This document shows, piece by piece, positions 2,686 through 64,000 of a DNA stretch of 64,000 bases. Each line of letters begins with the position of its first letter. The first letter of the stretch is position 1. The notes beneath the pieces were generated by a model. It did not search any database. It had not been told where the DNA came from and saw only the letters and a list, made by a program, of their open reading frames with translations. Origin of the DNA: Christensenellaceae bacterium (GTDB taxonomy: Bacteria > Bacillota > Clostridia > Christensenellales > Borkfalkiaceae). The position numbers were made by a program, and so were the translations under genes. Location of the stretch: assembly GCA_045638105.1 (NCBI GenBank), contig JAZUAT010000007.1, forward strand, positions 5,328-69,327, given 5' to 3'.

Positions 2686-2710
2686 TTTATTTAAGCACTA
2701 AGGAGAATTT

Positions 2711-3445: not shown

Positions 3446-5053
3446 ATGGGCACCATTTTAAACCTTTTAAAGTTACAAATAGATAATAAGACGGACATTT
3501 TAAAAACAGCGTCCCCTAAAAAAATGGCAATGTCTATTTTTAAAACCGCTCTTTTATTATTACTTATAACCGTTGCAATGGTTATAGTGCTATTAAGAAT
3601 ATTTTCACTTGGAATAAGGATAAACGAAGAACTTATAGCAATAGTATTGCTATTTATTCAAGGCATAGCGCTATTTTTTGCGGTTGGCAACATTATAGGC
3701 ACGTTATATTTAAGTAGAGATAATGAAATGTTAATTTGCTTGCCTATTACGCCAAACCAACTTTTTATATCAAAAATTTTATTGATATATCTTCGTGAAA
3801 TAGCAGTTAGCGCAACAATCTCTGTTCCATTATTTATAACGCTTGGCAGTTTAGGTGGTTTGGGCTTAAGTTTTTTCTTGTCTATACCATTGCTTGTATT
3901 GCTTTTACCAATATTTCCTATAGTTTTAGCAAGTTTTATAAGCATACCGGTTATGGCAGTTATAAGATTTTTAAAAAAGCACGCGTTTCTTGCAATAATT
4001 TGTATTTTGCTTTCCGTTTCCGTTTGCCTTTGGGGTTACATTTCTTTAATAGGTAGCATTGCAGGCAGTTTTAATATTGCCACACAGCAACTTGAAACGG
4101 TAATAAAAATAAACAAAATTGTAGTAGACGTTGGCGGAAAAATTATAGTATATATTCAACTTGCTAAAGCAATGCTTAATTTTTCAAGTTGGTATTGGTA
4201 CTTGGCGTTCTTACTTGTATGCGGTGCCGTATCTATCGTAACGGTGCTTGCAATACGTCCTCTTTACTTTAAGATGGCAATGTCTAGCTTAGAAAACACT
4301 ATTAAGGCAAAAGAAGTTAAAAAACCATTTAAAAAAGCAAGTCCATTTTTTAGCCTTATAAAAAAGGAAACGCTTTGCATCTTCCGTTCTCCAACGGACA
4401 TATTTGAATATTTTTTATTCACGCTTTTAATGCCGTTTATTGTATTTTCATACGACAAATTGCTTACTACTATAACTGTAAACCAAGCGGGTAGAAATAT
4501 GATAGCGGGCGCGCACGTAATGGTTGTTGCAATACTTGCAATGCTTTCAAACATTGTTTCAGCATCGGCAATTTCGCGTGATGGCGGTAATTTTTACACG
4601 TCAAAGATAATTCCCGTAAACTATTATCAACAAATTTTTGCAAAACTTGCATTTAATGCAATATTTACAACTAGTGCAATAATAGTTACGATGATAGTTT
4701 CAATGTTTGGTAAAGACGCAGTGCCATGGCAACTTATAATGGGTTCAGTAGCAGTAATTTTTGCTTCTATTGGTCATATTGCGTGGAGTCTTGAGATGGA
4801 TATAAAAAATCCTACTATCAATGCGCAAGGCGATGAAGAGTCTTCCACAACAAGTAAAAGCACTCCACAAAGCATAATAACAGGGCTTGTAATAGGTTTT
4901 GTGCTTGGAATTATAGTAATTTTATTGTCCAACTTAAAGTACTCTATTGTTCCGTATGCGTTAATTATAATTTTAGCGCTTGCGCTTGCAATATATCGTG
5001 TTTATATGTTAATTTTGCGTATAAATCTTTGCTACGACAAGATAGAGATGTGA
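3446..5053 (+). CDS. Putative ABC transporter permease, a large polytopic membrane protein
   Basis: 535 aa with >10 hydrophobic helices. Its start ATG overlaps the stop codon of the ATPase gene, suggesting translational coupling. Confidence 0.5.
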   Translation: MGTILNLLKLQIDNKTDILKTASPKKMAMSIFKTALLLLLITVAMVIVLLRIFSLGIRINEELIAIVLLFIQGIALFFAVGNIIGTLYLSRDNEMLICLPITPNQLFISKILLIYLREIAVSATISVPLFITLGSLGGLGLSFFLSIPLLVLLLPIFPIVLASFISIPVMAVIRFLKKHAFLAIICILLSVSVCLWGYISLIGSIAGSFNIATQQLETVIKINKIVVDVGGKIIVYIQLAKAMLNFSSWYWYLAFLLVCGAVSIVTVLAIRPLYFKMAMSSLENTIKAKEVKKPFKKASPFFSLIKKETLCIFRSPTDIFEYFLFTLLMPFIVFSYDKLLTTITVNQAGRNMIAGAHVMVVAILAMLSNIVSASAISRDGGNFYTSKIIPVNYYQQIFAKLAFNAIFTTSAIIVTMIVSMFGKDAVPWQLIMGSVAVIFASIGHIAWSLEMDIKNPTINAQGDEESSTTSKSTPQSIITGLVIGFVLGIIVILLSNLKYSIVPYALIIILALALAIYRVYMLILRINLCYDKIEM

Positions 5054-12000: not shown

Positions 12001-12265
12001 AGATGAACAAAAATCTCACGTGATTACAAGTGATAGCAAAATTAGTTTAGCAGTATTTATTCTTGATTATGGTGTAATGGGTGGCGATTCAAACGGTAGC
12101 CAAGCAATTTACGCGGCATATCAACAAGGCGGAATTATAGATGCAACGGAAATAAAAGGCATTGATACAACGCATCAATTTATAAATTTAAAAGTTTTTG
12201 CTGGGCAAGACATGCCATATGGCAATGCGCTTTTATACAACCTTAACTATGGTAAAACTGCATAA
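6029..12265 (+). CDS. Giant surface lipoprotein (2078 aa) with ~20 tandem Ig-like (Big_2-type) modules and a C-terminal beta-helix-like region. Putative adhesin or glycan-binding protein.
   Basis: Signal peptide plus lipobox (LSIATGLTAC|G). Reiterated modules carry the conserved 'DFKWE(I/V)VEG' and 'KVKA(V/T)CGG(K/Q)ESEVLEF(M/I)VGY' motifs. The C-terminal part (NAINIVGAVGNSVFENVYVHNCYQNGIQAKSS…) resembles right-handed parallel beta-helix / pectate-lyase-like repeats. Confidence 0.6.
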   Translation: MNSLKKVFLSLLLILSIATGLTACGMFETMDPDQGSGGGGQQPPSTPPTTITYTLNLIPNKSVALRGEVVTLNAYLHAEGKDDVLADGATYSIVDGASYATLAENKLTILNTANANSIVKVKAKVGATDSNVVEIKVSVPLESIVASANGVTNVLKGSSTVLHKETSPIGADLTDFKWEVIEGANLCSISGDVLVVNPNATVGSIIKVKAVCGGKESNVLEYIVGYPVTKVTASANEVTNILKGQSILLYKEIYPQEADKSDFKWEIVEGSNLCSINGDLLLVKPSAVTGSIIKVKATCGGQESEVLEFMVGYYVESVSASANGITNIKRGESVTLYKEILPKEADTDDFKWEVVEGAGLFTIAGDTLLVKANATVGAKIKVKAVCGGKESEALEFIVGYPVESITASANGVTNIIKGTNIPLSKQILPTNADIDDFKWEIVEGAGACFVNGDNLYVNATATTGTIIKVKAVCGGQESEVLEFMVGYYVESVTASASGVTNIKRGESITLYKEILPKEADTDDFKWEVVEGEGLFTITGDTLFVKSTATVGAKIKVKAVCGGKESEALEFIVGYPVESIKATAGGVTNIIKGTNIPLSKEILPTNADIDDFKWEIVEGAGACFVNGDNLHVNATATTGTIIKVKAVCGGKESEVLEFMVGYYVESVTASANGVTNILKGESVTLYKEILPKEADTDDFKWEILEGATICSINGDNLFVNSTAKTGDVIKVKATCGGQESDEFELIVGYPLKSISVEVGGSTNVPRGETRELTVTLDPVNTTEGDYKWEILEGADYCTIIDNVLTVSEFAPLDAEITFKAVGVKESSIITIVVTNAIESLSLTTSAPQILTHGANYPLQLVASPKDVSTKAVEWVVSNSDYAYVSNNTLYVYNNVPHGAELEVYAKSGNVESQKLEFNVGVALKELELELNGAVNVLNGKSITFTVTKNPADATNGEYEVVFVSGQDNCVLVGNTITIKDEATIGEKIIFKVVATNIAGIESGEVEIIVGIPVEEFTISLTAPAILTQGQYYPVEINVTPANATYKNVTWVVSKSAYAYVSNNLLFVRESVPHGATFKVSAIIDGKESSNSLIYQVGVAINSIAVSTNVKNVIQGQTATLTATINQGATEGYSWVITQGSEYASISNAMLFVNEGVETGTIIKVRAVSESGNVKSTELEFIVGIPLTALELERNGAVNVLNGNTITFAVTKKPANTTNGEYSVEFVSGQDYCVLSGNSITIKEDAPIGEEIIFKVVATNATGIESDTVKIIVGIPVVSLSISSTAPKILTHGASYPITLTTDPEDATYKNVEWFVSNKDYAYVSNNMLFVTNAIPHGATFDVYAKIGEKESNVLSYQVGVKINSITIETSATSVKKGNTASLTATLNDGATEGYNWVITQGNEYASISNNTLSVKEKAETGAIIKVKAVSASGEASSDEIEIVIAATDMEILENTYYLVLSFDYADLDKNGKTNPVLEAEVYNRLGTEIKDKNVIFELHNGSEAFVGIEKVGNSCRFTELKAHGTAYLNAKIEGLGVVETVELNVIVPPDVIYLPEVFAENPNFTYVYSMENPLNQEAEKLPFVAYAVTATACDDIVYSFTHEDGTTDNDVAIYNYETGTIEFLKTGLVTVTALSNSGSRIETKASYKFNINKGFNVYSFEHASQVTSNSGDYKNNKYNGEEINFVALEKIVGYNFENANYNYGYAFVPQVALKSQAEQRGNIDSYSENMTHDEKVAAYASLRNTMSSSNNRIIADTKNLHINGNQHAVDASNLYVPTDTEIERFRQIFGSDWFAHGGIISAEPYSLKKITGDVNSKVTFSVRIYDLEVIGNAPMSLANKEDASKTVWGVYLHGINVGDIDSGPNAKYYTELKNVTASAAKNAINIVGAVGNSVFENVYVHNCYQNGIQAKSSILTIKNFKIGACGATGIELVPDGSTKAGLNSDQKQTITFEGTIDAEGNIHATTTPYMIAYNDGAVPKIISASILFNQLTDEQKSHVITSDSKISLAVFILDYGVMGGDSNGSQAIYAAYQQGGIIDATEIKGIDTTHQFINLKVFAGQDMPYGNALLYNLNYGKTA
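6950..8290 (+). repeat. Near-identical 522-bp tandem duplication inside the giant lipoprotein gene. It has about 2.5 copies, and each copy spans two 87-aa Ig-like modules.
   Basis: Direct comparison of 6950-7472, 7472-7994 and 7994 onward shows >90% nucleotide identity (e.g. 'aaagttaaagcagtttgtggcggtcaagaaagtgaagttttagaatttatggttggttactacgttgaaagcgt' recurs). The spurious minus-strand ORFs 7225-7428 and 7747-7950 are offset by exactly 522 bp. Confidence 0.85.
8520..10340 (+). repeat. Second family of module repeats (A-B-A'-C-B'-A''-C' arrangement) with a ~780-bp higher-order nucleotide repeat
   Basis: Blocks starting 'SLSLTTSAPQILTHGANYP', 'LELELNGAVNVLNGKSITF' and 'INSIAVSTNVKNVIQGQTA' each recur 2-3 times with high DNA identity (e.g. 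8800-8940 vs 9590-9730). Confidence 0.7.
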
Positions 12266-12286
12266 AAAGTTTAACTACTAAAAAGA

Positions 12287-12360
12287 AGAACTTGGAAGTA
12301 AAATTCCAAGTTCTTTTTCATTAAAAAAGTGGGCGAACAAAACGTTCGCTCACTTTTTAT
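12287..12360. terminator. Two adjacent rho-independent hairpins between the convergent giant lipoprotein gene (+) and cysK (-)
   Basis: agaacttggaa-gtaaaa-ttccaagttct followed by ttttt. Then agtgggcgaac-aaaa-gttcgctcact, flanked by A-run and T-run, so it works in both orientations. Confidence 0.7.
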
Positions 12361-12370
12361 TTATATAGAA

Positions 12371-13297
12371 TTATAAATAATTTTCAACTGATAAATATTT
12401 TTCGCCACCGTCAGGTAAAAGTACAACAATAACCTTATTTTCATTTTCTTTAAGTTTTGCAAGTTCTATTGCCGAATAAAGCGCCGCTCCTGAAGATATT
12501 CCTACAAGCACGCCTTCAGTTTTGGCTAAAAGATTGCCTGTTTTATAAGAATCTTCTTCATTAACTATAAAAACTTTGTCAATAACGGAAAGGTCTAAAA
12601 TGCTAGGAATAAACCCTGCGCCTATGCCTTGAATTCCGTGGCTACCCGAATAACCTTTTGTAATAATAGGGCTATTAGCCGGCTCAATGCCGTAAACTTT
12701 TACGCTTGGTTTTTTTTCTTTTAAAAATTTGCCTACACCGCTAATCGTTCCGCCCGTACCTATGCCTGCCACAAAAACGTCAACTTGCCCGTCCGTATCC
12801 TCAAAAATTTCCTTGCCCGTACTTTCGTAATGGCATAGTGGGTTGTTAGGGTTTGTAAATTGGCTTGCAAGTATTGAGTTTTTAGTGCTGGCTTTAATTT
12901 CTTGTGCCTTATTAATTGCACCTTGCATACCTAAAGCACCATCAGTTAAAACTACTTGTGCGCCGTACGCTTTTATAAGTTTTATTCTTTCTTCACTCAT
13001 AGTATTTGGCATAACTATAATGGCATTATAGCCACGGCTGGCGCAAATTAAAGCAATTCCAATGCCGGTGTTGCCAGAAGTTGGCTCAATAATGGTTGCG
13101 CCTTTAGTTAAAATCCCGTCACGCTCGGCTGAGTCAATTAAAAATTTTGCAACTCTATCTTTTGATGAGCCTGCAGGGTTAAAGCTTTCAAGCTTTGCAA
13201 GTAAAGTGCATTTTAAATTAAACGCCTTTTCAATTTTATTAAGCCTGATAAGTGGAGTATTGCCTATTAAATTTTCAATAGAATTAAAAACTTTCAT
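12371..13297 (-). CDS. cysK: Cysteine synthase A (O-acetylserine sulfhydrylase)
   Basis: PLP-lysine motif 'PAGSSKDRVA', glycine-rich 'GIGTGGTISGVG', and 'EPTSGNTGIGIA'. Length 308 aa with full-length CysK/CysM-like architecture. Confidence 0.9.
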   Translation of the reverse strand: MKVFNSIENLIGNTPLIRLNKIEKAFNLKCTLLAKLESFNPAGSSKDRVAKFLIDSAERDGILTKGATIIEPTSGNTGIGIALICASRGYNAIIVMPNTMSEERIKLIKAYGAQVVLTDGALGMQGAINKAQEIKASTKNSILASQFTNPNNPLCHYESTGKEIFEDTDGQVDVFVAGIGTGGTISGVGKFLKEKKPSVKVYGIEPANSPIITKGYSGSHGIQGIGAGFIPSILDLSVIDKVFIVNEEDSYKTGNLLAKTEGVLVGISSGAALYSAIELAKLKENENKVIVVLLPDGGEKYLSVENYL

Positions 13298-13411
13298 AAA
13301 AATTTCCTTTATTGTATTTTAGCATAAAATTTTAAAAATGTTTAGTTTTTTTTGCAAAATTAAAAAATTTGTTTTACTAAAAAATTTTAAAGCGTAAATA
13401 AGCGCCTAATA

Positions 13412-13440
13412 TTGACAAACCGCACGTTTTAGTTTAAACT
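13412..13440 (+). promoter_or_regulatory. Promoter candidate for rplI (TTGACA, 17-nt spacer, TAAACT)
   Basis: ttgaca at 13412-13417, 17-nt spacer, taaact at 13435-13440. RBS 'aaggag' at 13447. Confidence 0.4.
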
Positions 13441-13458
13441 AATATTAAGGAGTTTATT

Positions 13459-13902
13459 ATGAAAGTTATAATGTTAAAAGACGTGAAAAACGTTGGTAAA
13501 GTTGGCGAAATTAAAGAGGTTAGTGACGGATATGCAAGAAACTGCCTAATAAAGCAAGGTCTTGCAGAAGAAGCAACTGCAGTTAAAATAAATAGCTTAA
13601 ATATTAAAAAGGGTGCGCAAGATTTTCACAAGCGTGAAGAAATTAAAGCACTTACGGAAGAAGCAAAAAAACTTAATGGCAATACCGTTGTAATAAAGGT
13701 AAAAAGTGGAGATAACGGCAAAATGTTTGGCTCTGTTACAAGCAAAGAAATTGCCGATGCTATTAACGAACTTGGCTTTAACGTTGATAAAAAGAAGGTT
13801 TTGTTAAAAGATTCCATTAAAACGTTTGGTATACACGCAGTTGACGTAAAGTTTTTACCAGAAGTTGTTGCAAAAATTAAAGTTAGCGTAGAAAACGCAT
13901 AA
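13459..13902 (+). CDS. rplI: 50S ribosomal protein L9
   Basis: N-terminus '[36 protein letters not shown]' matches the L9 consensus. Length 147 aa. Confidence 0.9.
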
Positions 13903-13904
13903 GA

Positions 13905-13930
13905 AAAAGCCGTTAATACGGCTTTTTTTG
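13905..13930 (+). terminator. rplI rho-independent terminator
   Basis: agccgt-taat-acggct followed by ttttttt. Confidence 0.75.
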
Positions 13931-13983
13931 TCTTTTTTAGCCTATTAAAAATTAAAACGCTTATGATAAAACTTTTATATTGA

Positions 13984-14012
13984 CAAATATAATATAAATT
14001 AGTATAATATAT
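13984..14012 (+). promoter_or_regulatory. Consensus sigma-A promoter (TTGACA, 17-nt spacer, TATAAT) for the 14080 gene
   Basis: ttgaca at 13984-13989, 17-nt spacer, tataat at 14007-14012. RBS 'aaggag' at 14066. Confidence 0.55.
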
Positions 14013-14079
14013 AATACTAATTTTAATTTATAGCATAACAAAACTTTATTATAAGTTTGCCTTTTGGCAAGGAGTATGT

Positions 14080-55972: not shown

Positions 55973-57070
55973 ATGATTAAAGTAGACGTTGTTTCGGGCT
56001 TTTTAGGCGCGGGTAAAACTACACTCATTACAAAGTTATTAAGCGGTTTAGATAAAAGCGAAAAAATTGCTATTATTGAAAACGAATTTGGCGAAATTGG
56101 CATTGACGGCGCTTTTTTAAAAAATTCCGGCATAGAAATTAAGGAAATAAACTCAGGCTGTATTTGTTGCTCGCTTGTTGGCAATTTTTCTCAGTCTTTA
56201 AAAGAATTAGTTCAAAAATATTCGCCTAATAGAATTATAATAGAGCCGTCTGGCGTTGGCAAACTTAGTGACGTTGTTAAGGCTATAAACGACTCGGGCA
56301 TTGACGTTAAGGTAAATATTGTTTGTACCGTTGTTGACGGCGGTAAATGCAAAATGTACTATAAAAACTTTGGTGAATTTTACCTTGACCAAATTAAAGA
56401 GGCAAGCGTTATTGTAATTTCTAAAACGGAAAAATTAAGCGAAGAAAAACTCATTGAAACTTGTGAGTTTATTAAAACTTACAATCCAACTGCAACACTT
56501 ATTACAACTCCAATTAATAAGCTTGACGGCAAATTGCTTGTTGAAAATTTAGAAGACGGCATAACGCTTACTGAAATGCTTATTGCCGAACTTAAAAAGC
56601 ATGAGCACGGCCACCACCATCATCACCACGATGAAGAGTGCCACTGCCACGACCACGAACATGAACATGAAGAGTGCCATTGCCATGACCATGAACATGA
56701 CCATGAGCATGAACATGAAGAATGTCACTGCCACGAACACGAGCATCACCATGAGCACGGCGAAGAATGTTGTTGTCATGGTCATCATCACCACCATGCA
56801 GAAGAAGTTTTTGAAAGCGTTGCAATAGAAACTCCTAAAGCGTATTCTTTTAAAGAACTAAACGATATTTTAACTAAACTTTGCACGGACGAGTATGGTA
56901 CTATTTTACGTGCAAAAGGCGTTTTAAAATCAAGCGAAGGCGAGTTGTGGCATTATTTTGACCTTGTTGCAGGCGACTTTGAAGTGCGTACAGGCGCGCC
57001 AGACGTTATTGGTAAGGCTTGCGTTATAGGCAGTAAAATTAACAAAGAAGAAATTAAAAAATTATTTTAA
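55973..57070 (+). CDS. COG0523 (CobW/ZigA-like) G3E GTPase metallochaperone with an extreme His/Cys-rich insert
   Basis: P-loop 'GFLGAGKTTL'. CobW signature 'NSGCICCSL'. The central ~65 aa are almost entirely H, E, C and D, with (EECHCHDHEHEHE) repeated 3 times. C-terminal CobW_C-like segment 'ILRAKGVLKSSEGELWHYFDLVAGDFEV'. Confidence 0.75.
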   Translation: MIKVDVVSGFLGAGKTTLITKLLSGLDKSEKIAIIENEFGEIGIDGAFLKNSGIEIKEINSGCICCSLVGNFSQSLKELVQKYSPNRIIIEPSGVGKLSDVVKAINDSGIDVKVNIVCTVVDGGKCKMYYKNFGEFYLDQIKEASVIVISKTEKLSEEKLIETCEFIKTYNPTATLITTPINKLDGKLLVENLEDGITLTEMLIAELKKHEHGHHHHHHDEECHCHDHEHEHEECHCHDHEHDHEHEHEECHCHEHEHHHEHGEECCCHGHHHHHAEEVFESVAIETPKAYSFKELNDILTKLCTDEYGTILRAKGVLKSSEGELWHYFDLVAGDFEVRTGAPDVIGKACVIGSKINKEEIKKLF

Positions 57071-57080
57071 AAGGTAAATT

Positions 57081-58016
57081 ATGGGAATACCTACGGTTAT
57101 AATTAGGGGCATACTTGAAAGCGGAAAAACAACTTTTATTGAAGAATCTTTATTAAACGGCGACTTTGGCGACCTTGGTAGAACGCTTATTTTAATGCAA
57201 GAAGAAGGGGAAGTTGAGTTTAACGAAAGTGCTTTAAAAAAGTGTAAGGCAAGCGTTAAGGTAATGTCTAAAATAAGTGATTGGAACGACAAAAATATAA
57301 ATGAAATTATACGCGAGTACCGCCCGCAAGCAGTTTTTATAGAAGTGAACGAAATGTGGGACTTTAACTCAATGCCACTTCCTAAATATTTTGACGTTCA
57401 ACAAGTAATGACCATTATTGACGGCTCAACTTTTAATGCGTATTTTAACAACATGCGCCAAAAGTTTGTTGATATGATTAAAACTACGGAAATCGCTATT
57501 GTTAACAGATGTAAACCAACGGAAGAAACTTCTAACATGAAGCGCAGTTTAAAAATTATAAATTCTGCGATGACCGTTATTGCTCTTTCGGAAGACGGAA
57601 GGGAACTTAAACTTGAAACCGACCTTCCTTTTAGCCTTAAAAACGACCCTATAACTTTAAAATTAAGTGATTTTGGCGCGTTTTATATTGATTCTTTTGA
57701 AAATAAAGATAGGTATGACGGCAAAATGATTGAGTTTGATTGCATGGCGGTGTTTGATAGAACGTTGCCACCAAAAAGTTTTGTTGCAGGCAGGCTTGCT
57801 ATGACTTGTTGTGTTGACGATATTCAACTTATAGGCCACCTTTGCGCGTACGAAGGCGATTTAAAGTTAAAAAACAAAAGTTGGATTAGATTAAAAGCAA
57901 TTGCGCACTATATGAGTTTTAAAGGTCAAAACGAGCAACAACTTGTTTTTGAAGCGGTAGAAATTAATGAAATTCCTACCCCTAATGAAGACGAAGTTTT
58001 AGTAACGTTAAATTAA
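57081..58016 (+). CDS. Degenerate CobW-like paralog (P-loop retained, CxCC motif absent)
   Basis: 'RGILESGKTTFIEE' is P-loop-like. There is no GCxCC motif. A CobW_C-like beta-rich C-terminus. Its start lies 10 nt after the preceding gene. Confidence 0.45.
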   Translation: MGIPTVIIRGILESGKTTFIEESLLNGDFGDLGRTLILMQEEGEVEFNESALKKCKASVKVMSKISDWNDKNINEIIREYRPQAVFIEVNEMWDFNSMPLPKYFDVQQVMTIIDGSTFNAYFNNMRQKFVDMIKTTEIAIVNRCKPTEETSNMKRSLKIINSAMTVIALSEDGRELKLETDLPFSLKNDPITLKLSDFGAFYIDSFENKDRYDGKMIEFDCMAVFDRTLPPKSFVAGRLAMTCCVDDIQLIGHLCAYEGDLKLKNKSWIRLKAIAHYMSFKGQNEQQLVFEAVEINEIPTPNEDEVLVTLN

Positions 58017-58056
58017 AAGCTTTCAACAATTTTGTGTCATTGCCAATTAAAAAATA

Positions 58057-58085
58057 AAAAGCCGTTAATTTTGAACGGCTTTAAA
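58057..58085 (+). terminator. Terminator before the tRNA
   Basis: aaagccgtt-aattttga-acggcttt. Confidence 0.55.
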
Positions 58086-58088
58086 TAT

Positions 58089-58164
58089 TGGGGCGTCGCC
58101 AAGCGGTAAGGCTACGGACTCTGACTCCGTCACTTCGTTGGTTCAAATCCTACCACCCCAGCCA
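58089..58164 (+). tRNA. tRNA-Gln (anticodon CUG)
   Basis: Cloverleaf with D-arm 'GCCAAGCGGTAAGGC', anticodon loop 'CTCTGAC' (anticodon CUG), and T-arm 'GGTTCAAATCC'. The 3' end 'ACCCCAGCCA' closely resembles bacterial tRNA-Gln. Confidence 0.8.
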
Positions 58165-58165
58165 C

Positions 58166-58209
58166 TAGACTATCAATTGAACCATATAGGTTAATTGATA
58201 GTCTTTTTC
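58166..58209 (+). terminator. Terminator hairpin after tRNA-Gln
   Basis: tagactatcaatt…aattgatagtct followed by ttttt. Confidence 0.6.
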
Positions 58210-58240
58210 TATTGTATTAAATCAAAAAAAGTGATATAAT

Positions 58241-58447
58241 ATGACAGAAGATGTCATTATGCTTGTTTATAATAAAAGCAAAAAAGGGTTGGGAAAAGCA
58301 AAAACTGAAATTATAAAGCAAATGATTTGCAATGATATGAGCTTATCTAACCAACAAAAAGAGAATTTTCTAAACGTGATTGATTCTTATTCAAAAGTAA
58401 GCGATATTAAGGATATTTTAACTTTCTTAAATAACTTAAAAAAATAG
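58241..58447 (+). CDS. Small hypothetical protein (68 aa) at the start of the island
   Basis: ORF only; no motif. Confidence 0.25.
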   Translation: MTEDVIMLVYNKSKKGLGKAKTEIIKQMICNDMSLSNQQKENFLNVIDSYSKVSDIKDILTFLNNLKK

Positions 58448-58513
58448 AAAAAGCAAATTTTTATAGAAAAAACTAAACAATTACGATAGTAGAGAAAAAA
58501 AGGAGAAAAGAAA

Positions 58514-60559
58514 ATGGCTAAAAATAAACAATCGGTAGAACCAAATATAGCAGATTTAGTAAATGGTTGGTTAAAATCATATAATTTAGATTACAAATTA
58601 GAGCAAGAATCTTTGAATACGGAAATTGACTTGGCGCTTAATGACTACTACTCAAAGAGTGGCGGAAAAGGTGGTAATAGACCAGACGCTAAACTTTTAT
58701 TGCGCTCTAAAGACGGTAAAGATTATCCTATCTTAATTGAATATAAGGGTTATAAAGACAAGCTAATTAAGTTAGATAGTGAAGGCAATATTGCAAATAG
58801 ATTAGCAAATGGGCAACCTGATTATAACAATATTAAATCGTTTGCAGTAAATGGTGCAGTTCACTATGCAAATGCTATTCTCCATTACACAAGTTATACA
58901 GACGTTATTGCTATAGGCGTTACAGGCTATAAAGATGATAACGGCATGTTAGTACATTCTATCGGTGTATATTTTGTTGCAAAAAGCAATTTTGGTATGG
59001 GACAAGAAGTTGCAGAATATACCGACCTTTCTTGCTTAAAAAAGGAACATTTTAGCGATTTTATAGAAAAAGTTAAATACTTATCTCTTACTAAAGAAGA
59101 AATAGAAAAATTAAAAGAACGTAGAGAAGAAGAAATAACGGCAAGCCTTGTAAAATTAAATAACGATATTTTCAAAGAAGAAAAAGGGCTCAGTGAAAAT
59201 GACCGTGTATATCTCGTTGCCGCATCTATTATGGCAACACTTGGTGATGCAGATAACAAGGTTTATCCTTTAACTAAGGCAGATTTGAAATCATCTGATG
59301 AAGTCGGCAATACTGACGGCGATATTATGATAAGAAAAATTGAAGCCTTTCTTGGTGCTAAAAAATTACCGAAAGACAAAAAAGATTTGATTGTTAGAAC
59401 TCTTAAAAACACTTTGACTACAGATAATATCAATAAACCTATTAGTGGTGAAAGCCAATTAAAAAGAGTGTTTATAAAAATTATTGATGACTTGGGAATT
59501 TACTACAAAATTGGCTTAACTACTGATTTTACAGGTAAATTATTTAACGAAATGTATTCGTGGCTTGGTTTTAGTCAAGACCAACTTAATGACGTTGTTT
59601 TAACCCCATCTTACGTTTCAACACTTCTTTGCCGTCTTGCTAGAGTGAATATGGACTCTTTCGTTTGGGACTTTGCGACTGGTTCAGCAGGTCTTTTGGT
59701 TGCTGCAATGAACGAAATGTTGATAGATGCAAAAGAAAAAATTCAATCGCCTGAAGAATTTGCAGTAAAATCAGCGCACATAAAAGCAAATCAATTATTA
59801 GGTTTAGAAATTCTTTCAAACGTGTATATGCTTGCCGTATTAAATATGATTTTAATGGGCGATGGAAGTTCTAATATCTTAAATAAAGACTCTTTAACAT
59901 TTAATGGACATTACGGATTTGGCAAAACAAATGAAAAATTCCCTGCAACAGCGTTTGTTTTGAATCCACCTTATTCTGCACCAGGTAATGGTATGGTATT
60001 TGTGGAAAAAGCGCTTTCAATGATGAATAAAGGTTTTGCGGCAATAATTATTCAAAATTCGGCAGGCTCTGGCAAGGCTACGGAGTTCAATAGACGCATA
60101 TTAAAGCGCAATACACTTCTTGCGAGTATAAAAATGCCCATTGATTTATTTGTTGGAAAATCAAGCGTACAAACTTATGTTTACGTTTTTCGTGTTGGCG
60201 AAGCTCATCAAAAAGACGATATCGTAAAGTTTATTGATTTTTCTAATGATGGTTATACAAGAACAAACCGAAAAAAAGCAAGCAAGAATTTGTTTGATAG
60301 AGATAGAGCAAAAGACCGCTATCAAGAACTTGTAGATTTAGTTCGTTATGGTAAAGGGAAACTTAACATCTTTACCGAAAAAGAATACTACGAAGGTACG
60401 ATAGACCCTAAAAATGGTGCTGACTGGAATCAAACTGCACCTATTGATACGAAACCGACGCTTGAAGATTTTAAAAAGACTGTAAGCGATTATCTTGCTT
60501 GGGAAGTTTCGACGCTCTTAAAAGGTCAAAACAAGGAGGATGACCGCTTGGGAAAATAG
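58514..60559 (+). CDS. Type IIB (BcgI-like) restriction-modification A subunit: N-terminal PD-(D/E)xK nuclease fused to a gamma-class N6-adenine DNA methyltransferase
   Basis: Nuclease motif 'RPDAKLL…PILIEYKGY' (PD…ExK). MTase motif I 'VWDFATGSAGLLV' and motif IV 'FVLNPPYSAPG'. 681 aa, followed by a 341-aa partner ORF, the size class of BcgI A (637 aa) and B (341 aa). Confidence 0.65.
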   Translation: MAKNKQSVEPNIADLVNGWLKSYNLDYKLEQESLNTEIDLALNDYYSKSGGKGGNRPDAKLLLRSKDGKDYPILIEYKGYKDKLIKLDSEGNIANRLANGQPDYNNIKSFAVNGAVHYANAILHYTSYTDVIAIGVTGYKDDNGMLVHSIGVYFVAKSNFGMGQEVAEYTDLSCLKKEHFSDFIEKVKYLSLTKEEIEKLKERREEEITASLVKLNNDIFKEEKGLSENDRVYLVAASIMATLGDADNKVYPLTKADLKSSDEVGNTDGDIMIRKIEAFLGAKKLPKDKKDLIVRTLKNTLTTDNINKPISGESQLKRVFIKIIDDLGIYYKIGLTTDFTGKLFNEMYSWLGFSQDQLNDVVLTPSYVSTLLCRLARVNMDSFVWDFATGSAGLLVAAMNEMLIDAKEKIQSPEEFAVKSAHIKANQLLGLEILSNVYMLAVLNMILMGDGSSNILNKDSLTFNGHYGFGKTNEKFPATAFVLNPPYSAPGNGMVFVEKALSMMNKGFAAIIIQNSAGSGKATEFNRRILKRNTLLASIKMPIDLFVGKSSVQTYVYVFRVGEAHQKDDIVKFIDFSNDGYTRTNRKKASKNLFDRDRAKDRYQELVDLVRYGKGKLNIFTEKEYYEGTIDPKNGADWNQTAPIDTKPTLEDFKKTVSDYLAWEVSTLLKGQNKEDDRLGK

Positions 60560-60660
60560 ATGCCCTGCTTAACGAGAAGCTTAAAAATGTTGAGTGGGGC
60601 GAATATGAGCTTCAAAAGTTATTTGATATCAAAACTACAAGAAGCATAGACAAAAACAAA

Positions 60661-61686
60661 GTGTTTTTTGCGGAAAACGGCGAGTACGATTTTATTGGAA
60701 GAAGTCGTGAGAATAATGGCGTTCAAGGAAAAATGGAAAAACTTCATTTTGAACCAAATTCTGCAAACACATTTTCATTAGCACAAGTTGGGGAAACCGT
60801 ATGTTTGTTTAGGGATAAAAAATGGTATGCTTCTCAAAATATATTTATTTTATCTCCGATAAGGGAAGAGCTTGCAAAACAGTATAAATTTATTACAGCT
60901 TCAATTAATAAGGCATTGTATCCATATAGAAGTGCGTATATTTATCCAACATTGCCAGAAGTAAAAAATATTACAATTAAACTTCCAATAAAATGTGGAC
61001 AAATTGATTTTGAATTTATGGGGAATTTTGTTGCCGAGCTAGAATCTCGTCGTATCGCTGAGCTGAATAATTACCTATTAGCTACTGGATTAAAAGATTA
61101 CGTTTTAACAGCGGAAGAAGAAAAAGCGTTAAACGATTATCAAGACGGAAAGATAACATTGTCTCAATATTTGTTTAAGGATATTTTTAATAATATTAAG
61201 CAGGGGCGCAGATTAAAGAAAGATGACCAACTAAAAGGAACTATTCCTTTTGTTATGTCGGGTATTACAAATACAGGTGTTGTTGGATATATTTCTAATC
61301 CAATTGCAGTTTTCCCTAAAAACGCTATCACTATAGATATTTTTGGGAATTCGTTTTATAGGAATTATGAATTTGGGGCTGGAGACGATACTGGCGTATA
61401 CTGGAATACAAAGGTTGATTACACGAAAGAAGCAATGTTATTCTTTACGGCTTCTATTGGTAAAGCTTTGTTAGGAAAATTTTCTTATGGCAAAAAATTA
61501 AGAAGCTCGCAAAGCCACAATTTTAAAATGTATGTTATTGATAAAGACGGCAAACCAGACTATAAGTGCATGAAAACTTTTATATCGGCGATACAAAAAC
61601 TCGTCATTAAAGACGTGGCTTTGTATGCCGATTCAAAAATCGAAGCAGGTAAAGAAAAGCGCCACACTTCACACTTTTGCCCTTAA
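60661..61686 (+). CDS. Type IIB RM B (specificity/TRD) subunit candidate. The frame is open upstream to 60544 without a canonical start codon.
   Basis: 341 aa from GTG 60661. The upstream in-frame peptide '…DALLNEKLKNVEWGEYELQKLFDIKTTRSIDKNKV' resembles the start of an HsdS-type TRD. Positioned immediately after the MTase-nuclease gene. Confidence 0.5.
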   Translation: MFFAENGEYDFIGRSRENNGVQGKMEKLHFEPNSANTFSLAQVGETVCLFRDKKWYASQNIFILSPIREELAKQYKFITASINKALYPYRSAYIYPTLPEVKNITIKLPIKCGQIDFEFMGNFVAELESRRIAELNNYLLATGLKDYVLTAEEEKALNDYQDGKITLSQYLFKDIFNNIKQGRRLKKDDQLKGTIPFVMSGITNTGVVGYISNPIAVFPKNAITIDIFGNSFYRNYEFGAGDDTGVYWNTKVDYTKEAMLFFTASIGKALLGKFSYGKKLRSSQSHNFKMYVIDKDGKPDYKCMKTFISAIQKLVIKDVALYADSKIEAGKEKRHTSHFCP

Positions 61687-61753
61687 ATATATGGGAACCC
61701 CATATTTAATAAAATGCAATTAAAAAGAACTTGGTCATCCAAGTTCTTTTTAA

Positions 61754-62812
61754 TTATTTTCGATAGTTTTTTGTGAATTCGAGGGAGTTCTTTGCCTTTT
61801 CTAAAAGATTTTGATAAGTATATATTTTAATGTTGTGGTAAGAAGAGTTCAACACTCGTAAGAATTGAGCCTCTTCTACTGATAAATCACGCTCATTGCC
61901 AATTATAAGCGTTGCTTTTGTTTTTAAGTACGTTGGATTGGTGGCAAAGGCTTTTTCACACTCCAATATGTAATTCATGCATTGAGCAATGGCTTTATTT
62001 AACTCGTGTGAGGGGTAGTGGTTTTTATGAGAGTTATCAAAGTTGAAAATTTTGACCGTTGGCAACTTTAACTCTATTATATCAATATAACCATCAAACG
62101 TTGTTGGCACTAAGTCCAAAATGTTTTGAGGATTAATATAATTGTTTTCCGAGAAGAAAACATATTCATTGTTAAACATCCACAAATTGTCTTTTAAGAA
62201 CTTGTTGATTTCAACCTCGTTTTTATAAGAGTCTTTATTTTGAATAATTTCTTCCAATCTCAAAACGGCTTTCTCTCTTTTTTTAATTTCAAGGATTGTA
62301 TTGTAATTGTCTAGATGTTCTATATTATAAGACAGGATATCTTCAAAGTCCTTTTGTGAGACTTTTATTGTTTTTAAATCGGGAGCGCTGGCGATATATT
62401 TATCAATATCTATTTTATATTTTGAAGTTTTATTAAAATCAACAGTAAAGATAGTGTCTAAAAACTTTTTTAATTTAATCGTGGATTCAATGTCTAAGCA
62501 AATTTCTTGTCCGCCATAAACACCTTTGGCTGTTCTACGACATATATGAAGTCCTTGAGTAAAAGGAAGTCCTTGCTTATATTCTTCTATCCAACAATAA
62601 ACTTTTTGTTGACCACCACCCGTTTTGTGGAGTAAAACACTATCAACAATCTTTGCAGGTATTTCTTCACCTGTTTTATATTTTTCCAACGGGACTTCAT
62701 CCATATTAAAAAGCAATTCTGCATGCCTGTATTTTTTACCATCTTTAACGTTTGCTTTTCCTAGATAAATAACATTTTCTAATTTATTGTCATCATATTC
62801 ACTAAAACCCAT
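61754..62812 (-). CDS. Hypothetical protein with a C-terminal PD-(D/E)xK-like nuclease motif (Shedu/DUF4263-like?), convergent with the RM genes
   Basis: '…FDGYIDIIELKLPTV…' fits the D…(E/D)xK pattern. No other recognisable domain. 352 aa. Confidence 0.35.
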   Translation of the reverse strand: MGFSEYDDNKLENVIYLGKANVKDGKKYRHAELLFNMDEVPLEKYKTGEEIPAKIVDSVLLHKTGGGQQKVYCWIEEYKQGLPFTQGLHICRRTAKGVYGGQEICLDIESTIKLKKFLDTIFTVDFNKTSKYKIDIDKYIASAPDLKTIKVSQKDFEDILSYNIEHLDNYNTILEIKKREKAVLRLEEIIQNKDSYKNEVEINKFLKDNLWMFNNEYVFFSENNYINPQNILDLVPTTFDGYIDIIELKLPTVKIFNFDNSHKNHYPSHELNKAIAQCMNYILECEKAFATNPTYLKTKATLIIGNERDLSVEEAQFLRVLNSSYHNIKIYTYQNLLEKAKNSLEFTKNYRK

Positions 62813-63064
62813 ATTAACTCTCCTTAAGTTACATTATATCAAATAATTAGAAAAGAATAAAGCGTAAATAGGAATTTTACAAACTTAAAATAACGCCGAT
62901 TGACCATTTATAACTAAATAGTTCAATCAAGTTAGCGTTTGTGTAGCCAAAAAGAAAACACTCATCTGTTGATGGGTGTTTTTTTGCATTGAGAAGAATA
63001 TTGGGTGGAATTTGAAGTAGCGTTAAAAAATATGCGTTGAATATTTTAATTTTTTTAAATTGAA

Positions 63065-63099
63065 AAGGGCGGAAAATAATTTCCGCCCTTGTTTTTATT
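63065..63099. terminator. Bidirectional terminator after the GH2 gene
   Basis: aagggcggaaa-ataa-tttccgccctt, flanked by A-runs and T-runs. Confidence 0.7.
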
Positions 63100-64000
63100 C
63101 TTTAACTATTTCATTATACGCTTTTATTATTGCGTTTGAAATTTTAAGCATTTTTTGTTTGTCTACTTTGCATACCTTTCTATCGTAAGTGTATATGCCG
63201 TTAGTTTCGTCTTCAACGTCACTAATTTGCGTGAGAACGAGTGCGCATAATTTTTCATTTTTAATACAAGGTATAACTTGGTTATAGTAAAGGTCTTCTA
63301 AATCTAACATAAAAGTTTCTTTCGTGCATTTTTTATAGCCGTACGTGTTAGATAAATTAAAACTATGCTCGTTAATTTTATATGAATATCCGCCAAACTC
63401 ACTTAAAACAAGCGGTTTAACGCCGTCGTTTTTGATATTTATTTTTTTAAAGTAGACGTGCTCACTTTTAACGTCGCTTTCGCAATTATTAAACCAGCCG
63501 GAAGCCGTGTCGTAAACGCGCGTAGGGTCAAGTTCTTTAAAAATTTTATAGTGTGCCGTGGCGTTTTGTTGCCCCCAGCCTTCGTTAAAAATGGTGTAGT
63601 AAACAACGCATGGGTAACTATATAAATGCTCAACCGTTTTTTGGCTAGCTTCTAAAAACTTTTCTTTTTGCTTTTTAGTGGCTAATGACGGCTTAAACTT
63701 TTTAAAGCCAATAGTAGGTAATGCGGTGTCTATTATAAAGCTATATGCGCCGTTATTAACAAAGTCTTGGAAAACAGCCATACCTAAAACGTCACAATAA
63801 TAGTAAAAAATTTCCGGCTCAATTTTAATATGCTTTCTAATCATATTAAAGCCAAGTTCTTTCATTTTTAAAATATCGTCTTTAAACCCTTGCTCGCAAG
63901 GTGGTAAAAATATTCCGTCAGGAAAGTAGCCTTGGTCTAAAACGCCGTTAAAAAAGTAGTTTTTGCCGTTGAGCGTTAAGCCGTTTTTGTTACAGCCAAT
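63095..64000 (-). CDS. Glycoside hydrolase family 2 protein, C-terminal part. The frame is open to the window end, so the N-terminus lies outside.
   Basis: The minus-strand frame continues upstream of the listed Met as '…GVLDQGYFPDGIFLPPCEQGFKDDILKMKELGFNMIRKHIKIEPEIFYYYCDVLGMAVFQDF', which matches the GH2 TIM-barrel start (…LMKxxGxNxVRxSHYP…). Confidence 0.6.
   Translation of the reverse strand: MGCNKNGLTLNGKNYFFNGVLDQGYFPDGIFLPPCEQGFKDDILKMKELGFNMIRKHIKIEPEIFYYYCDVLGMAVFQDFVNNGAYSFIIDTALPTIGFKKFKPSLATKKQKEKFLEASQKTVEHLYSYPCVVYYTIFNEGWGQQNATAHYKIFKELDPTRVYDTASGWFNNCESDVKSEHVYFKKINIKNDGVKPLVLSEFGGYSYKINEHSFNLSNTYGYKKCTKETFMLDLEDLYYNQVIPCIKNEKLCALVLTQISDVEDETNGIYTYDRKVCKVDKQKMLKISNAIIKAYNEIVKE

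Follow-up and report, generated by a model that had tools for sequence, protein, structure and literature searches.

A candidate programmed -1 frameshifting cassette between the A and S reading frames of a Type IIB-style restriction-modification system in a variable defence slot

A variable defence slot 3' of tRNA-Gln

The 64,000-nucleotide stretch of DNA analysed here (the window) carries, at 58.2-62.9 kb and 3' of a tRNA-Gln gene, a variable defence slot with two unrelated systems, a Type IIB-style restriction-modification (R-M) enzyme and a Shedu nuclease (Table 1). A first-pass annotation of the locus had listed the tRNA, ORFs of 68, 681 and 341 aa and a convergent ORF of 352 aa, and all of them lie at the coordinates it gave. 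The housekeeping flanks it described are likewise present, with a CobW pair upstream and, downstream, a glycoside hydrolase ORF that is intact up to the window end.

Table 1. Positions of the features of the slot and of the A/S junction within the window.
Feature	Position	Strand	Description and support
tRNA-Gln (anticodon CUG)	58089..58164	+	left anchor of the slot; ARAGORN; Rfam RF00005, 47.7 bits
Hairpin directly 3' of the tRNA	58167..58204	+	inverted repeat I6, 19-nt arms, then a T-run
Left border of the slot, conserved	58196..58276	+	88% identity to L008:4986-5067 despite different cargo
68-aa ORF	58241..58447	+	3' remnant of a larger gene joined to border sequence
A (RM) subunit	58514..60559	+	681 aa, 76.4 kDa; PADLOC, Pfam, invariant motifs, AF2, Foldseek
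SD-like AAGGAGG, proposed 5' frameshift stimulator	60533..60539	+	10 nt upstream of the heptamer
Slippery heptamer G_GGA_AAA	60550..60556	+	A frame; spans the final two sense codons of A
S (specificity) reading frame	60556..61686	+	-1 relative to A; Pfam Methylase_S, PADLOC Specificity_II
TAG stop of A	60557..60559	+	directly 3' of the heptamer
12-bp hairpin, proposed 3' stimulator	60562..60600	+	arms 60562-60573 and 60589-60600; 15-nt loop
Bidirectional terminator hairpin separating S from the convergent Shedu gene	61718..61755	.	17-nt perfect inverted repeat I4; terminator scan, both strands
Shedu SduA nuclease, 352 aa	61754..62812	-	Pfam, PADLOC, DIIELK
Right border of the slot, conserved	62900..62954	+	89% identity to L008:6122-6176

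The tRNA-Gln is matched at 96% identity in three related loci (L008, L009 and L010), and the hairpin that follows it is likely a terminator. Within the left border, a TTGTAT hexamer (58212-58217) is followed after 17 nt by TGATATAAT (58232-58240); these hexamers, read from the sequence, may constitute a promoter. The 68-aa ORF that comes next has no family match in Pfam, NCBIfam or PADLOC. Its residues 14-68 share 82% identity with the last 55 residues of a 322-aa ORF that stands upstream of A in L016 (3188-4156), and what had been listed as an ORF of its own is the truncated 3' part of that larger gene. At the other end of the slot, an orphan plus-strand hairpin with a T-run can be read from the sequence after the right border (about 62958-62986).

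The earlier proposal of a small defence locus of variable occupancy beside tRNA-Gln is borne out by close relatives of the host, which differ in their cargo. The same borders enclose an unrelated 318-aa gene in L008 and L009, whose CobW is 98% identical; L010 (CobW 87%) has MNT/HepT, an AbiEii fragment and a Type II MTase. The description as an inserted island is not supported. No integrase-like ORF is found in the island by the ORF list, Pfam, NCBIfam or PADLOC, 57900-63300 contains no directly repeated copy of the 3' end of the tRNA, as had already been reported, and the borders shared with L008 are non-tRNA sequences. Since both an integrase and an att repeat are missing, recombination slot is the better name. 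A comparison of GC content with the flanks had also been suggested as a check; the segment lies below its flanks (0.28-0.37 versus 0.34-0.43), but so slightly that composition is not decisive. As an island, the combination of R-M and Shedu beside a tRNA gene is nothing unusual.

The convergent 352-aa protein had been described as an unknown protein with a D...ELK nuclease motif. The motif is there (DIIELK at residue 244), but the protein is identifiable as Shedu SduA, with a match to Pfam SduA_C (PF14082, residues 198-337) at 54 bits for a cutoff of 27 and to nine PADLOC SduA models (SduA E 4.7e-32). Like Shedu (SduA, DUF4263), it has the C-terminal PD-(D/E)xK domain and stands as a single-gene system in a defence locus, whereas its N-terminal ~190 residues match no Pfam family; N-terminal domains vary between Shedu members. 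None of 93 R-M-related loci has a homolog of it linked to the R-M system, and Shedu is here an independent single-gene defence system.

A nuclease-methyltransferase fusion and a specificity frame without a start codon

In subunit A, a helical connector links an N-terminal PD-(D/E)xK nuclease to a gamma-class N6-adenine MTase. It is covered from end to end by the PADLOC model PDLC03616 (REase_MTase_IIG; E 3.4e-234, residues 5-672), and is also matched by a second PADLOC model of 637 positions (E 2e-42) and by Pfam N6_Mtase. The nuclease and MTase motifs that had been picked out by eye, D58/E76/K78 (RPD...EYK) and NPPY, do not vary when A is aligned with relatives at 31-47% identity. An AF2 model of A (pLDDT 82.8) gives full-length Foldseek matches to BsaXI RM, BpuSI and DrdV, that to BsaXI RM (8w2p/8w0p) spanning 668-676 columns at E about 3e-13. 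PADLOC coverage, the invariant triad and the structural match to BsaXI RM together confirm the initial reading of the 681-aa protein as a nuclease/MTase fusion. We also considered A as an ordinary Type I HsdM, that is, an MTase subunit of ~450-550 aa that has no nuclease domain and acts together with HsdS and a separate HsdR. A is not such a subunit. HsdM matches span only residues about 305-590 of A, which has an extra N-terminal domain of ~300 aa with the invariant nuclease triad and is paired with a two-TRD S in an island that has no HsdR: from the tRNA to the glycoside hydrolase gene, no ORF encodes an HsdR or translocase. Nor was an HsdR seen beside A-S in the neighbour lists of L001-L007, although a ResIII gene lies ~7 kb upstream in L002-L005.

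S resembles the specificity component of Type I systems and contains two TRDs as well as two conserved regions (60975-61138 and 61555-61647); relatives share the latter, whereas their TRDs differ. The S frame is open only from 60544, after a TGA at 60541-60543, and has 13 nt in common with the end of A (TGA 60541 to TAG 60557). Counted from the first codon after the proposed shift (ATA), S has 376 codons up to its stop, and no ATG, GTG or TTG occurs in the S frame of the window ahead of 60661. The 341-aa ORF (60661-61686, plus strand) begins at a GTG that is only the first of these codons in a frame already open. When the frame is read from 60556, the Methylase_S match starts at profile position 1 instead of 26 and rises from 66.7 to 80.2 bits; Methylase_S matches S in two stretches, the better one covering positions 1-167 of the 168-position profile with residues 11-171. 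Because the profile reaches position 1 only when the start-less stretch ahead of the GTG is included, and because this stretch aligns with natural fusions, we conclude on sequence grounds that it is coding. The GTG-started partner of the first-pass annotation is thus an ORF-finder artefact, as the N-terminus of the S domain lies upstream of its start. Among relatives, the first canonical start in the S frame is scattered from -133 to +296 and is not conserved, and the record behind L001 places the start of S on an ATA codon.

These results uphold the BcgI-like Type IIB assignment in its fused A subunit, its two-TRD S and the absence of a translocase, but not in its separate 341-aa specificity protein. 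The enzyme would presumably cut on both sides of its site, as BcgI-type enzymes do.

A conserved candidate recoding signal at the A/S junction

The earlier reading overlooked a candidate recoding signal that occupies 60533-60600, where the SD-like AAGGAGG, a 10-nt spacer, G_GGA_AAA, TAG and the 12-bp hairpin follow one another. S lies in the -1 frame in 79/79 species-level relatives, taken as unselected loci. GGGAAAA followed by the stop is found in 75 of these 79, and three have AAAAAAA instead, each with all three G replaced by A so that the X_XXY_YYZ pattern is kept. An in-frame heptamer of this pattern stands 0-3 nt from the stop in 98 of 100 distinct junctions, in four types (GGGAAAA, GGGAAAG, AAAAAAA and AAAAAAG), against a background of 0.55% per codon in the rest of these genes. 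In L028 the heptamer is broken, and L094 has no canonical one. Synonymous positions are constrained as well: of 425 conserved degenerate codon columns, only two are occupied by one codon throughout, GGA (73/73) and AAA (75/75), and GGA makes up only 29% of Gly codons overall. The S-frame codon that spans the stop is ATA in 72 of the 100 junctions, ATG in 16, GTA in 10 and TTA or CTA in one each, so that 84 have a non-ATG codon; ATA is a rare initiator permitted in table 11. We know of no measurement of G_GGA_AAA as a shift site in Clostridia.

Both proposed stimulators are conserved as well. A GAGG/GGAG core is found at 10-11 nt spacing in 75/79 distinct relatives, and the GAG codon of the SD-like element is 96% invariant, the third highest value among the 425 conserved columns. 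The hairpin begins 5 nt after the heptamer, has an MFE of -17.9 kcal/mol (z -4.8) and is the MFE structure in 80/80 relatives, with 99.3% of alignment cells paired against 33-48% in slid controls. Double changes affect 4 of its 12 pairs, and pair 13-35 is UA in 47 sequences, UG in 14, CG in 17 and CA in none (Fisher 4e-9). None of 500 shuffles reaches the observed pairing, a statistic that overstates the significance since the sequences are related. Both arms lie in coding sequence. As far as the sequence can tell, the junction unites several hallmarks of -1 frameshifting: an in-frame heptamer in a short overlap, conservation at synonymous sites and stimulators on the 5' and 3' sides.

The clade that surrounds the window comprises 497 relatives among species-representative genomes and 149 on viral contigs; close relatives in metagenomes number in the thousands. 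Its wider family handles the junction in other ways. In relatives of 27-44% identity, S lies in the +1 frame and starts at a canonical ATG preceded by an SD at the proper distance; others are hard-wired, either as in-frame A-S fusions (P0242, P0272, P0277, P0329 and P0392) or, when A-half-S fusions are counted with them, also in L121 and L133.

Proposed programmed frameshifting, its alternatives and known systems

From these signals, we propose that S is probably made by programmed -1 ribosomal frameshifting, which would yield free A and an A-S fusion for complexes of the A2S type. As a ribosome decodes GGA AAA on G_GGA_AAA, the TAG next to it would make it pause. The 12-bp hairpin (5 nt downstream) and base pairing between 16S rRNA and AAGGAGG (10 nt upstream) would keep it in place, and a fraction of ribosomes would slip back one base and read on into S. 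Termination would release free A (681 aa, 76 kDa), and the shift would produce an A-S fusion of 1057 aa and 120 kDa with the junction ...DDRLGK-IDALLNEKLKNVEWGEY..., for which the predicted junction-spanning Glu-C peptide is DDRLGKIDALLNE. One free A and one A-S fusion may then assemble into the A2S or (RM)2S stoichiometry of BcgI and BsaXI, the ratio of the two products being set by the frameshift efficiency.

The overlapping codon at the stop could alternatively support termination-reinitiation, so that S would be a separate 43-kDa protein started on ATG in some loci and ATA in most, with a hairpin that enforces coupling and a heptamer conserved for other reasons. We hold this to be improbable, although the classical ATGA overlap makes separate initiation of S possible in at least 16 of 100 junctions, the L001 record uses the permitted ATA, and distant relatives rely on coupling through an overlapping ATG. 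The hairpin could equally serve such coupling by blocking independent initiation, and the GeneTack study found that one and the same junction can combine coupling with frameshifting (PMC3711429). Reinitiation leaves unexplained why GGA and AAA never swap to a synonymous codon and why substitute heptamers all keep X_XXY_YYZ, and it meets GTA, TTA or CTA at 12 junctions, none of which is an initiator in table 11. Moreover, the SD-like element is 16 nt from the codon, too far for normal initiation, whereas ATG-using relatives have their SD 5-10 nt away.

The same fusion protein would also arise if RNA polymerase slipped on the G3A4 run and added one base in some transcripts, giving an in-frame A-S mRNA. 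Some relatives do have A7 or A6G runs, and one decayed locus has an extra G fixed in the run at the DNA level. Yet known slippage-prone tracts have ~8-9 identical bases or more, far above the 3-4 of the window, and a precisely spaced SD-like element and a covarying hairpin are stimulators of ribosomes and not of polymerases, which makes polymerase slippage very unlikely in our opinion. We give just as little credit to the remaining reading, in which S starts at the internal GTG 60661 (341 aa) or the system is inactive here and its junction features are relics. This GTG is the first canonical start in the frame, but the position of that start wanders among relatives as described above, and its use would cost S the first 25 positions of the domain profile together with a conserved motif, VEWGEY. 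Decay is evident in a few related loci (L174, and L051, L069, L073 and L093 with internal stops), but A and S are intact in the window and in most of the 79 species, and the 94% nucleotide identity to L016 argues for recent function.

The proposed frameshift resembles that of dnaX in its upstream SD-like element, heptamer and downstream hairpin. In E. coli dnaX, the SD-like element lies ~10 nt from an X_XXY_YYZ heptamer and the hairpin 5-6 nt downstream, and the -1 shift (tau/gamma) provides two products at a set ratio from one mRNA, both of which enter one complex. The shift product of dnaX is the shorter one since the stop lies in the -1 frame, whereas the window would gain a longer fusion, its 0-frame stop abutting the heptamer. 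The heptamer of the clade is also mostly G_GGA_AAA and not A_AAA_AAG, which is found in some relatives.

With BsaXI and BcgI, the window enzyme shares the build of A (N-terminal PD-(D/E)xK nuclease joined through a helical connector to a gamma-class N6-adenine MTase), a Type I-like S with two TRDs and the lack of a translocase subunit. Its A is only 15% identical to BsaXI RM and shorter (681 versus about 916 aa). BsaXI is an (RM)2S and BcgI an A2B complex (PMC11997821, PMC3592470). Their specificity subunit is described as a separate polypeptide, whereas S of the window has no start codon and is seemingly added to A through frameshifting. In natural EcoKI, the genes overlap by 1 nt and are coupled through ATG (PMC3510504). 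Removal of a frame offset, which joins the MTase C-terminus to the S N-terminus, was the principle of the engineered EcoKI M-S fusion ('Type IMS', Roberts et al. 2012), which is active in restriction and modification in vivo and depends on a supply of free M in vitro (PMC3510504). That fusion is man-made and hard-wired, whereas the window apparently yields free A and a fusion from one mRNA. Finally, single-chain Type IIB/IIG enzymes (TstI, AloI-type RMS) have the same R-M-S domain order as the A-S fusion. Both they and the in-family fusions are constitutive and make no free A, whereas the clade of the window keeps a stop codon and a recoding cassette.

For this large, horizontally mobile Type IIB-style clade of gut Clostridia as a whole, we consider it rather likely that S is never made free and that a dnaX-like -1 cassette at the stop of A ensures assembly of A and A-S in a fixed ratio. 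It would then be the first programmed ribosomal frameshift in R-M within the reach of our search and a natural intermediate between BcgI/BsaXI and TstI/AloI. We found no report of a programmed ribosomal frameshift in any restriction system in the open-access literature. If the proposal is true, the subunit stoichiometry of a restriction enzyme would be set at the decoding level, an idea that we did not find in the open-access R-M or recoding literature. It would also explain why S is mis-annotated in the clade, where gene callers start it at arbitrary internal codons or at ATA, and specificity studies with A and S cloned as separate genes would fail or be misleading. The family would combine three solutions to the assembly problem, namely coupling through ATG, hard-wired fusion and recoding, and because these coexist, the evolutionary path from multi-subunit to single-chain R-M becomes directly testable.

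The only junction that we found hard-wired as LGK-I is that of P0391, a decayed locus that we did not count as support.

Components of the tRNA-Gln island

The tRNA and ORFs listed for this region by the first-pass annotation are accurate when set against ARAGORN and the ORF list, and its failure to find a direct repeat of the tRNA 3' end is confirmed by the absence of any such copy in 57900-63300. The GC content of the island is barely lower than that of its flanks, and an Rfam scan of the island returned the tRNA alone, all remaining matches being far under their gathering scores. A truncation of the glycoside hydrolase gene 3' of the island was suspected and rejected, the gene extending past the end of the window. 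In the upstream CobW pair, the first CobW-family GTPase (55973-57070) carries a long His/Cys/Glu/Asp-rich insert (HEHGHHHHHHDEECHCHDHEHEHEECHCHDHEH...); the repetitive sequence encoding it gives rise to spurious ORFs on either strand and forms the only GC-rich patch nearby (0.40-0.43).

Features of the tRNA-Gln island and of the junction between the A (nuclease-MTase) and S (specificity) genes, in window positions
Feature	Position	Remarks
tRNA-Gln(CTG)	58089-58164	sole tRNA in the window (ARAGORN)
Hairpin terminator	58167-58204	after the tRNA
Left border block	58196-58276	contains promoter-like TTGTAT-17-TGATATAAT
68-aa ORF (ORF68)	58241-58447	
681-aa ORF (A)	58514-60559	plus strand
SD-like element AAGGAGG	60533-60539	
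Spacer, SD-like element to heptamer		10 nt
Slippery heptamer G_GGA_AAA	60550-60556	last two sense codons of A
Stop codon of A (TAG)	60557-60559	
Gap, stop to stem		2 nt (heptamer to stem, 5 nt)
Stem, 12 bp, with 15-nt loop	60562-60573 paired with 60589-60600	
ORF given as 341 aa	60661-61686	GTG start
Hairpin terminator	61718-61755	between the convergent genes
352-aa ORF	61754-62812	minus strand, convergent
Right border block	62900-62954	
Hairpin terminator	63065-90	ends the glycoside hydrolase gene 3' of the island

Residues 5-672 of A match the PADLOC REase_MTase_IIG model PDLC03616 (E 3.4e-234), and the protein also matches Pfam N6_Mtase. When A is aligned with relatives at 31-47% identity, neither the PD...EYK triad (D58, E76, K78) nor MTase motifs I and IV (NPPY) vary. 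Phmmer searches of PDB sequences with A and with the 352-aa protein gave no match, so that profile and fold searches were needed instead. The AlphaFold model of A (pLDDT 82.8) aligns over its full length to the BsaXI RM subunit (8w2p/8w0p), BpuSI and DrdV, whereas Type I HsdM structures align to its connector and MTase part only. Given this nuclease triad and full-length RM match, A is not an ordinary HsdM, an alternative that the first-pass annotation had named; the island also contains no HsdR. S contains Methylase_S in two stretches and is recognised by PADLOC models for Type II specificity subunits.

The 352-aa protein had been described as unknown with a nuclease-type motif. The motif (DIIELK) stands, but the protein is identifiable as the Shedu protein SduA (Pfam SduA_C, 54 bits for a cutoff of 27; PADLOC, E 4.7e-32). 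The idea that Shedu is linked to the R-M system was rejected: no Shedu homolog is present in any of the 93 loci carrying relatives of the R-M system, which makes it an independent neighbour. ORF68 has no family match and is a truncated remnant: in a related locus (L016), A is preceded by a 322-aa ORF whose last 55 residues are 82% identical to residues 14-68 of ORF68. In L016, a HipA_C-domain kinase gene (2251-3186) is followed by the 322-aa gene (3188-4156), while six other loci (L002-L007) carry an HTH_26 gene and an uncharacterised gene of 270-283 aa overlapping the start of A. The R-M pair thus often has an uncharacterised upstream partner, which has been lost from the window copy. In addition, the ATG of ORF68 (58241) immediately follows the promoter-like extended -10 (TGATATAAT, 58232-58240) and so would lie upstream of any transcript from that promoter, casting further doubt on ORF68 as annotated.

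A conserved cassette at the A/S junction

S lies in the -1 frame relative to A. Its frame opens at 60544, and the encoded sequence, ...GK IDALLNEKLKNVEWGEYELQKLFD..., is typical of an S-subunit N-terminus; no ATG, GTG or TTG occurs before 60661. Read from 60556, S gains 13.5 bits in its Pfam S-domain match, which then starts at profile position 1 rather than 26, showing that the start-less stretch is coding. As a TGA at 60541-60543 closes the S frame, the overlap of the two frames is only 13 nt, centred on the heptamer. The ATG at 60560 was rejected as a start of S, since it lies in the frame of A and meets a stop after 30 codons. An added C in the CCC run after this ATG would restore MPLLNEKL..., but a private 1-nt deletion or sequencing error is rejected because the same offset and junction are found in 79 of 79 other species.

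Each of these 79 species-representative loci encodes S in the -1 frame. The heptamer GGGAAAA followed by a stop is found in 75 of them, and AAAAAAA followed by a stop in three, where a change of all three G to A keeps the X_XXY_YYZ pattern; it is broken in one (L028). When viral-contig relatives are added to the species-level loci, an in-frame heptamer lies within 0-3 nt of the stop in 98 of 100 distinct -1 junctions (GGGAAAA 84, GGGAAAG 7, AAAAAAA 3, AAAAAAG 3), for a background of 0.55% of codon positions elsewhere in the same genes; a further junction (L118) has GGGAAAG 24 nt upstream. At synonymous sites, codon choice in A (76 sequences) is fixed at just two of 425 conserved degenerate columns, G680 (GGA in 73/73) and K681 (AAA in 75/75). 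GGA represents 29% of Gly codons overall, and the commonest codon at other conserved Gly columns peaks at 78%. The third most invariant column is a GAG within the SD-like element. In 75 of 79 distinct sequences, the core of this element (GAGG or GGAG) precedes the heptamer by 10-11 nt. The S-frame codon across the stop is ATA in 72 of the 100 junctions, ATG in 16, GTA in 10, and TTA and CTA in one each. The next canonical S start is scattered from -133 to +296, and in most loci a TGA at -16 closes the S frame. Some loci have upstream S-frame 'starts' at -58; these are by-products of conserved Ala-Trp codons (GCN TGG) of A and were discarded.

The downstream hairpin is predicted as the MFE structure of all 80 sequences, with a z of -4.8 for the copy in the window. 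In the alignment, 99.3% of cells pair, and changes on both sides affect four of the 12 pairs (23 cells). On four of five measures, the observed values are not attained by any of 500 shuffles; on the fifth, the number of double-change pairs, seven shuffles attain the observed value. Sliding the 3' arm by 1-3 columns lowers pairing to 33-48%. Pair 13-35 is U-A in 47 sequences, U.G in 14, C-G in 17 and C.A in none (Fisher 4e-9, not corrected for phylogeny).

How the S subunit may be translated

Several features of the junction argue for frameshifting: the in-frame heptamer, kept at synonymous sites and replaced only by other slippery heptamers; the 0-frame stop abutting it, in front of a -1 ORF usually devoid of a start codon; and the SD-like element ~10 nt upstream together with a covarying hairpin 5 nt downstream. 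Such a combination characterises bacterial programmed -1 frameshifting and agrees with the geometry of the E. coli dnaX frameshift, where a heptamer stands between an SD-like element and a hairpin. A fraction of the ribosomes would shift by -1 at G_GGA_AAA and run on into S, while the rest would terminate at the TAG. Judged from sequence, the junction probably gives rise to two proteins, free A (76.4 kDa) from ribosomes that terminate and an A-S fusion (119.5 kDa) from those that shift frame, the latter with a predicted junction-spanning Glu-C peptide DDRLGKIDALLNE.

Reinitiation of S at a codon overlapping the stop of A is possible at the ATGA junctions, which make up 16% of the total, and conceivable at those with ATA, but it cannot apply to GTA, TTA or CTA junctions and leaves the heptamer pattern and the invariant GGA/AAA synonymous sites unexplained. 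Transcriptional slippage could also produce A-S but is unlikely, as the run here is only G3A4. Finally, conservation and domain completeness contradict both a GTG-initiated S of 341 aa and an inactive system.

The predicted frameshift products also fit what is known of related enzymes. One free A and one A-S, if assembled together, would have the same composition as A2B or (RM)2S. BcgI is A2B (PMC3592470), BsaXI is (RM)2S with RM subunits at both ends of S (PMC11997821), and an engineered EcoKI M-S fusion is functional in vivo and requires added free M in vitro (PMC3510504). This stoichiometry and the behaviour of the EcoKI fusion are both consistent with the proposed pair of products.

A family survey that took in representatives of 50%-identity clusters as well as viral-contig relatives along an identity gradient reveals that S is supplied in three ways: by ATG coupling, by in-frame fusion, or in the -1 arrangement with the cassette. 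In relatives at 27-44% identity, S is in the +1 frame with a canonical ATG overlapping the stop of A and an SD 5-10 nt upstream, which is ordinary translational coupling. In-frame A-S fusions include the related proteins P0242 (74% identical in A), P0272, P0277, P0329, P0328 and P0392, and A-half-S fusions of about 840-920 aa include those at loci L121, L133 and L134. The -1 arrangement with the cassette occurs in the clade of the window (at least 63% identity) and in L135-L137 (33-35%). The predicted trans-frame product is colinear with the natural fusions: A tail, short linker, S N-terminus. A metagenome scan with P0269, which is 43% identical and also ends in LGK, gave two loci only, neither informative. 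The in-frame 'LGK-INASL' protein P0391 was considered as a hard-wired frameshift product and discarded, since its locus is decayed. This copy of the R-M system (L174:3078-5630), seen in 10 contigs, has A split into 308-aa and 274-aa pieces and a split S, and its junction is in-frame owing to one additional G in the slippery run (CTGGGGAAAATAA).

No report of programmed frameshifting in any R-M system was found in full-text, open-access papers (absence of evidence, not proof), nor in the texts of the 2016 recoding review and the GeneTack survey. The defence island described by the first-pass annotation, an R-M system and a neighbour beside tRNA-Gln, holds, but the recoding cassette at the A/S junction had been missed. 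While the island, a IIB-style R-M system and Shedu in a variable tRNA-adjacent slot, is real but ordinary, the interest lies in this conserved cassette, a strong and testable computational prediction.

Probable slot exchange and mobility of the R-M system

The host belongs to an uncultured lineage of Clostridia, and the closest relatives of the R-M genes are labelled Christensenellaceae. Occupancy at tRNA-Gln is variable, as the first-pass annotation required: two loci with a 98% identical CobW-like protein (L008, L009) have the same tRNA-Gln followed by an unrelated 318-aa gene without family match, and in L010, a relative at 87%, the cargo consists of MNT/HepT, an AbiEii fragment and a Type II MTase. 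The window and L008 have in common two short non-coding blocks, the borders of the slot. These conserved borders and the absence of any integrase or att repeat make the slot look like a site of cassette exchange and not of integrase-mediated insertion. Between tRNA-Gln and the border block, L008, the closest relative, has ~315 extra bases missing from the window (L008:4671-4985), with repeated 'ATATTTCACA'-like motifs. Just right of the right border block, an orphan plus-strand hairpin with a T-run (62955-62990; ACACTCATC-TGTT-GATGGGTGT TTTTTTT) has no plus-strand gene upstream and no Rfam match; it may be a relic terminator or the end of a small RNA.

Elsewhere the R-M system is found in mobile contexts with recombinases, Mob and other defence genes (L002-L007). 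A 47-nt fragment of the tRNA-Gln 3' end (89.6%) is present 1.8 kb upstream of A in L002-L005 (8145-8191) and L007 (2430-2476), and in L002 and L003, the two loci scanned with ARAGORN, no intact tRNA was called at this place. The fragment suggests that, in other hosts, tRNA-Gln serves as an integration site for elements with this R-M system. Bins with relatives at 76-98% identity are assigned to many families, some of them in other phyla, and IMG/VR contigs carry 149 relatives. Homology with relatives extends over A and the junction, and within S it is confined to the two conserved regions; the TRDs differ, which is the usual specificity shuffling. In L003, L005 and L007, which share an identical A, S is shortened to 299 aa and overlaps the next gene, a serine recombinase (Recombinase + Zn_ribbon_recom; in L003, S at 12106-13005 and recombinase at 12989-14062), and sister contigs have a 356-aa S; this may reflect an insertion into S or recombinase-driven variation of S.
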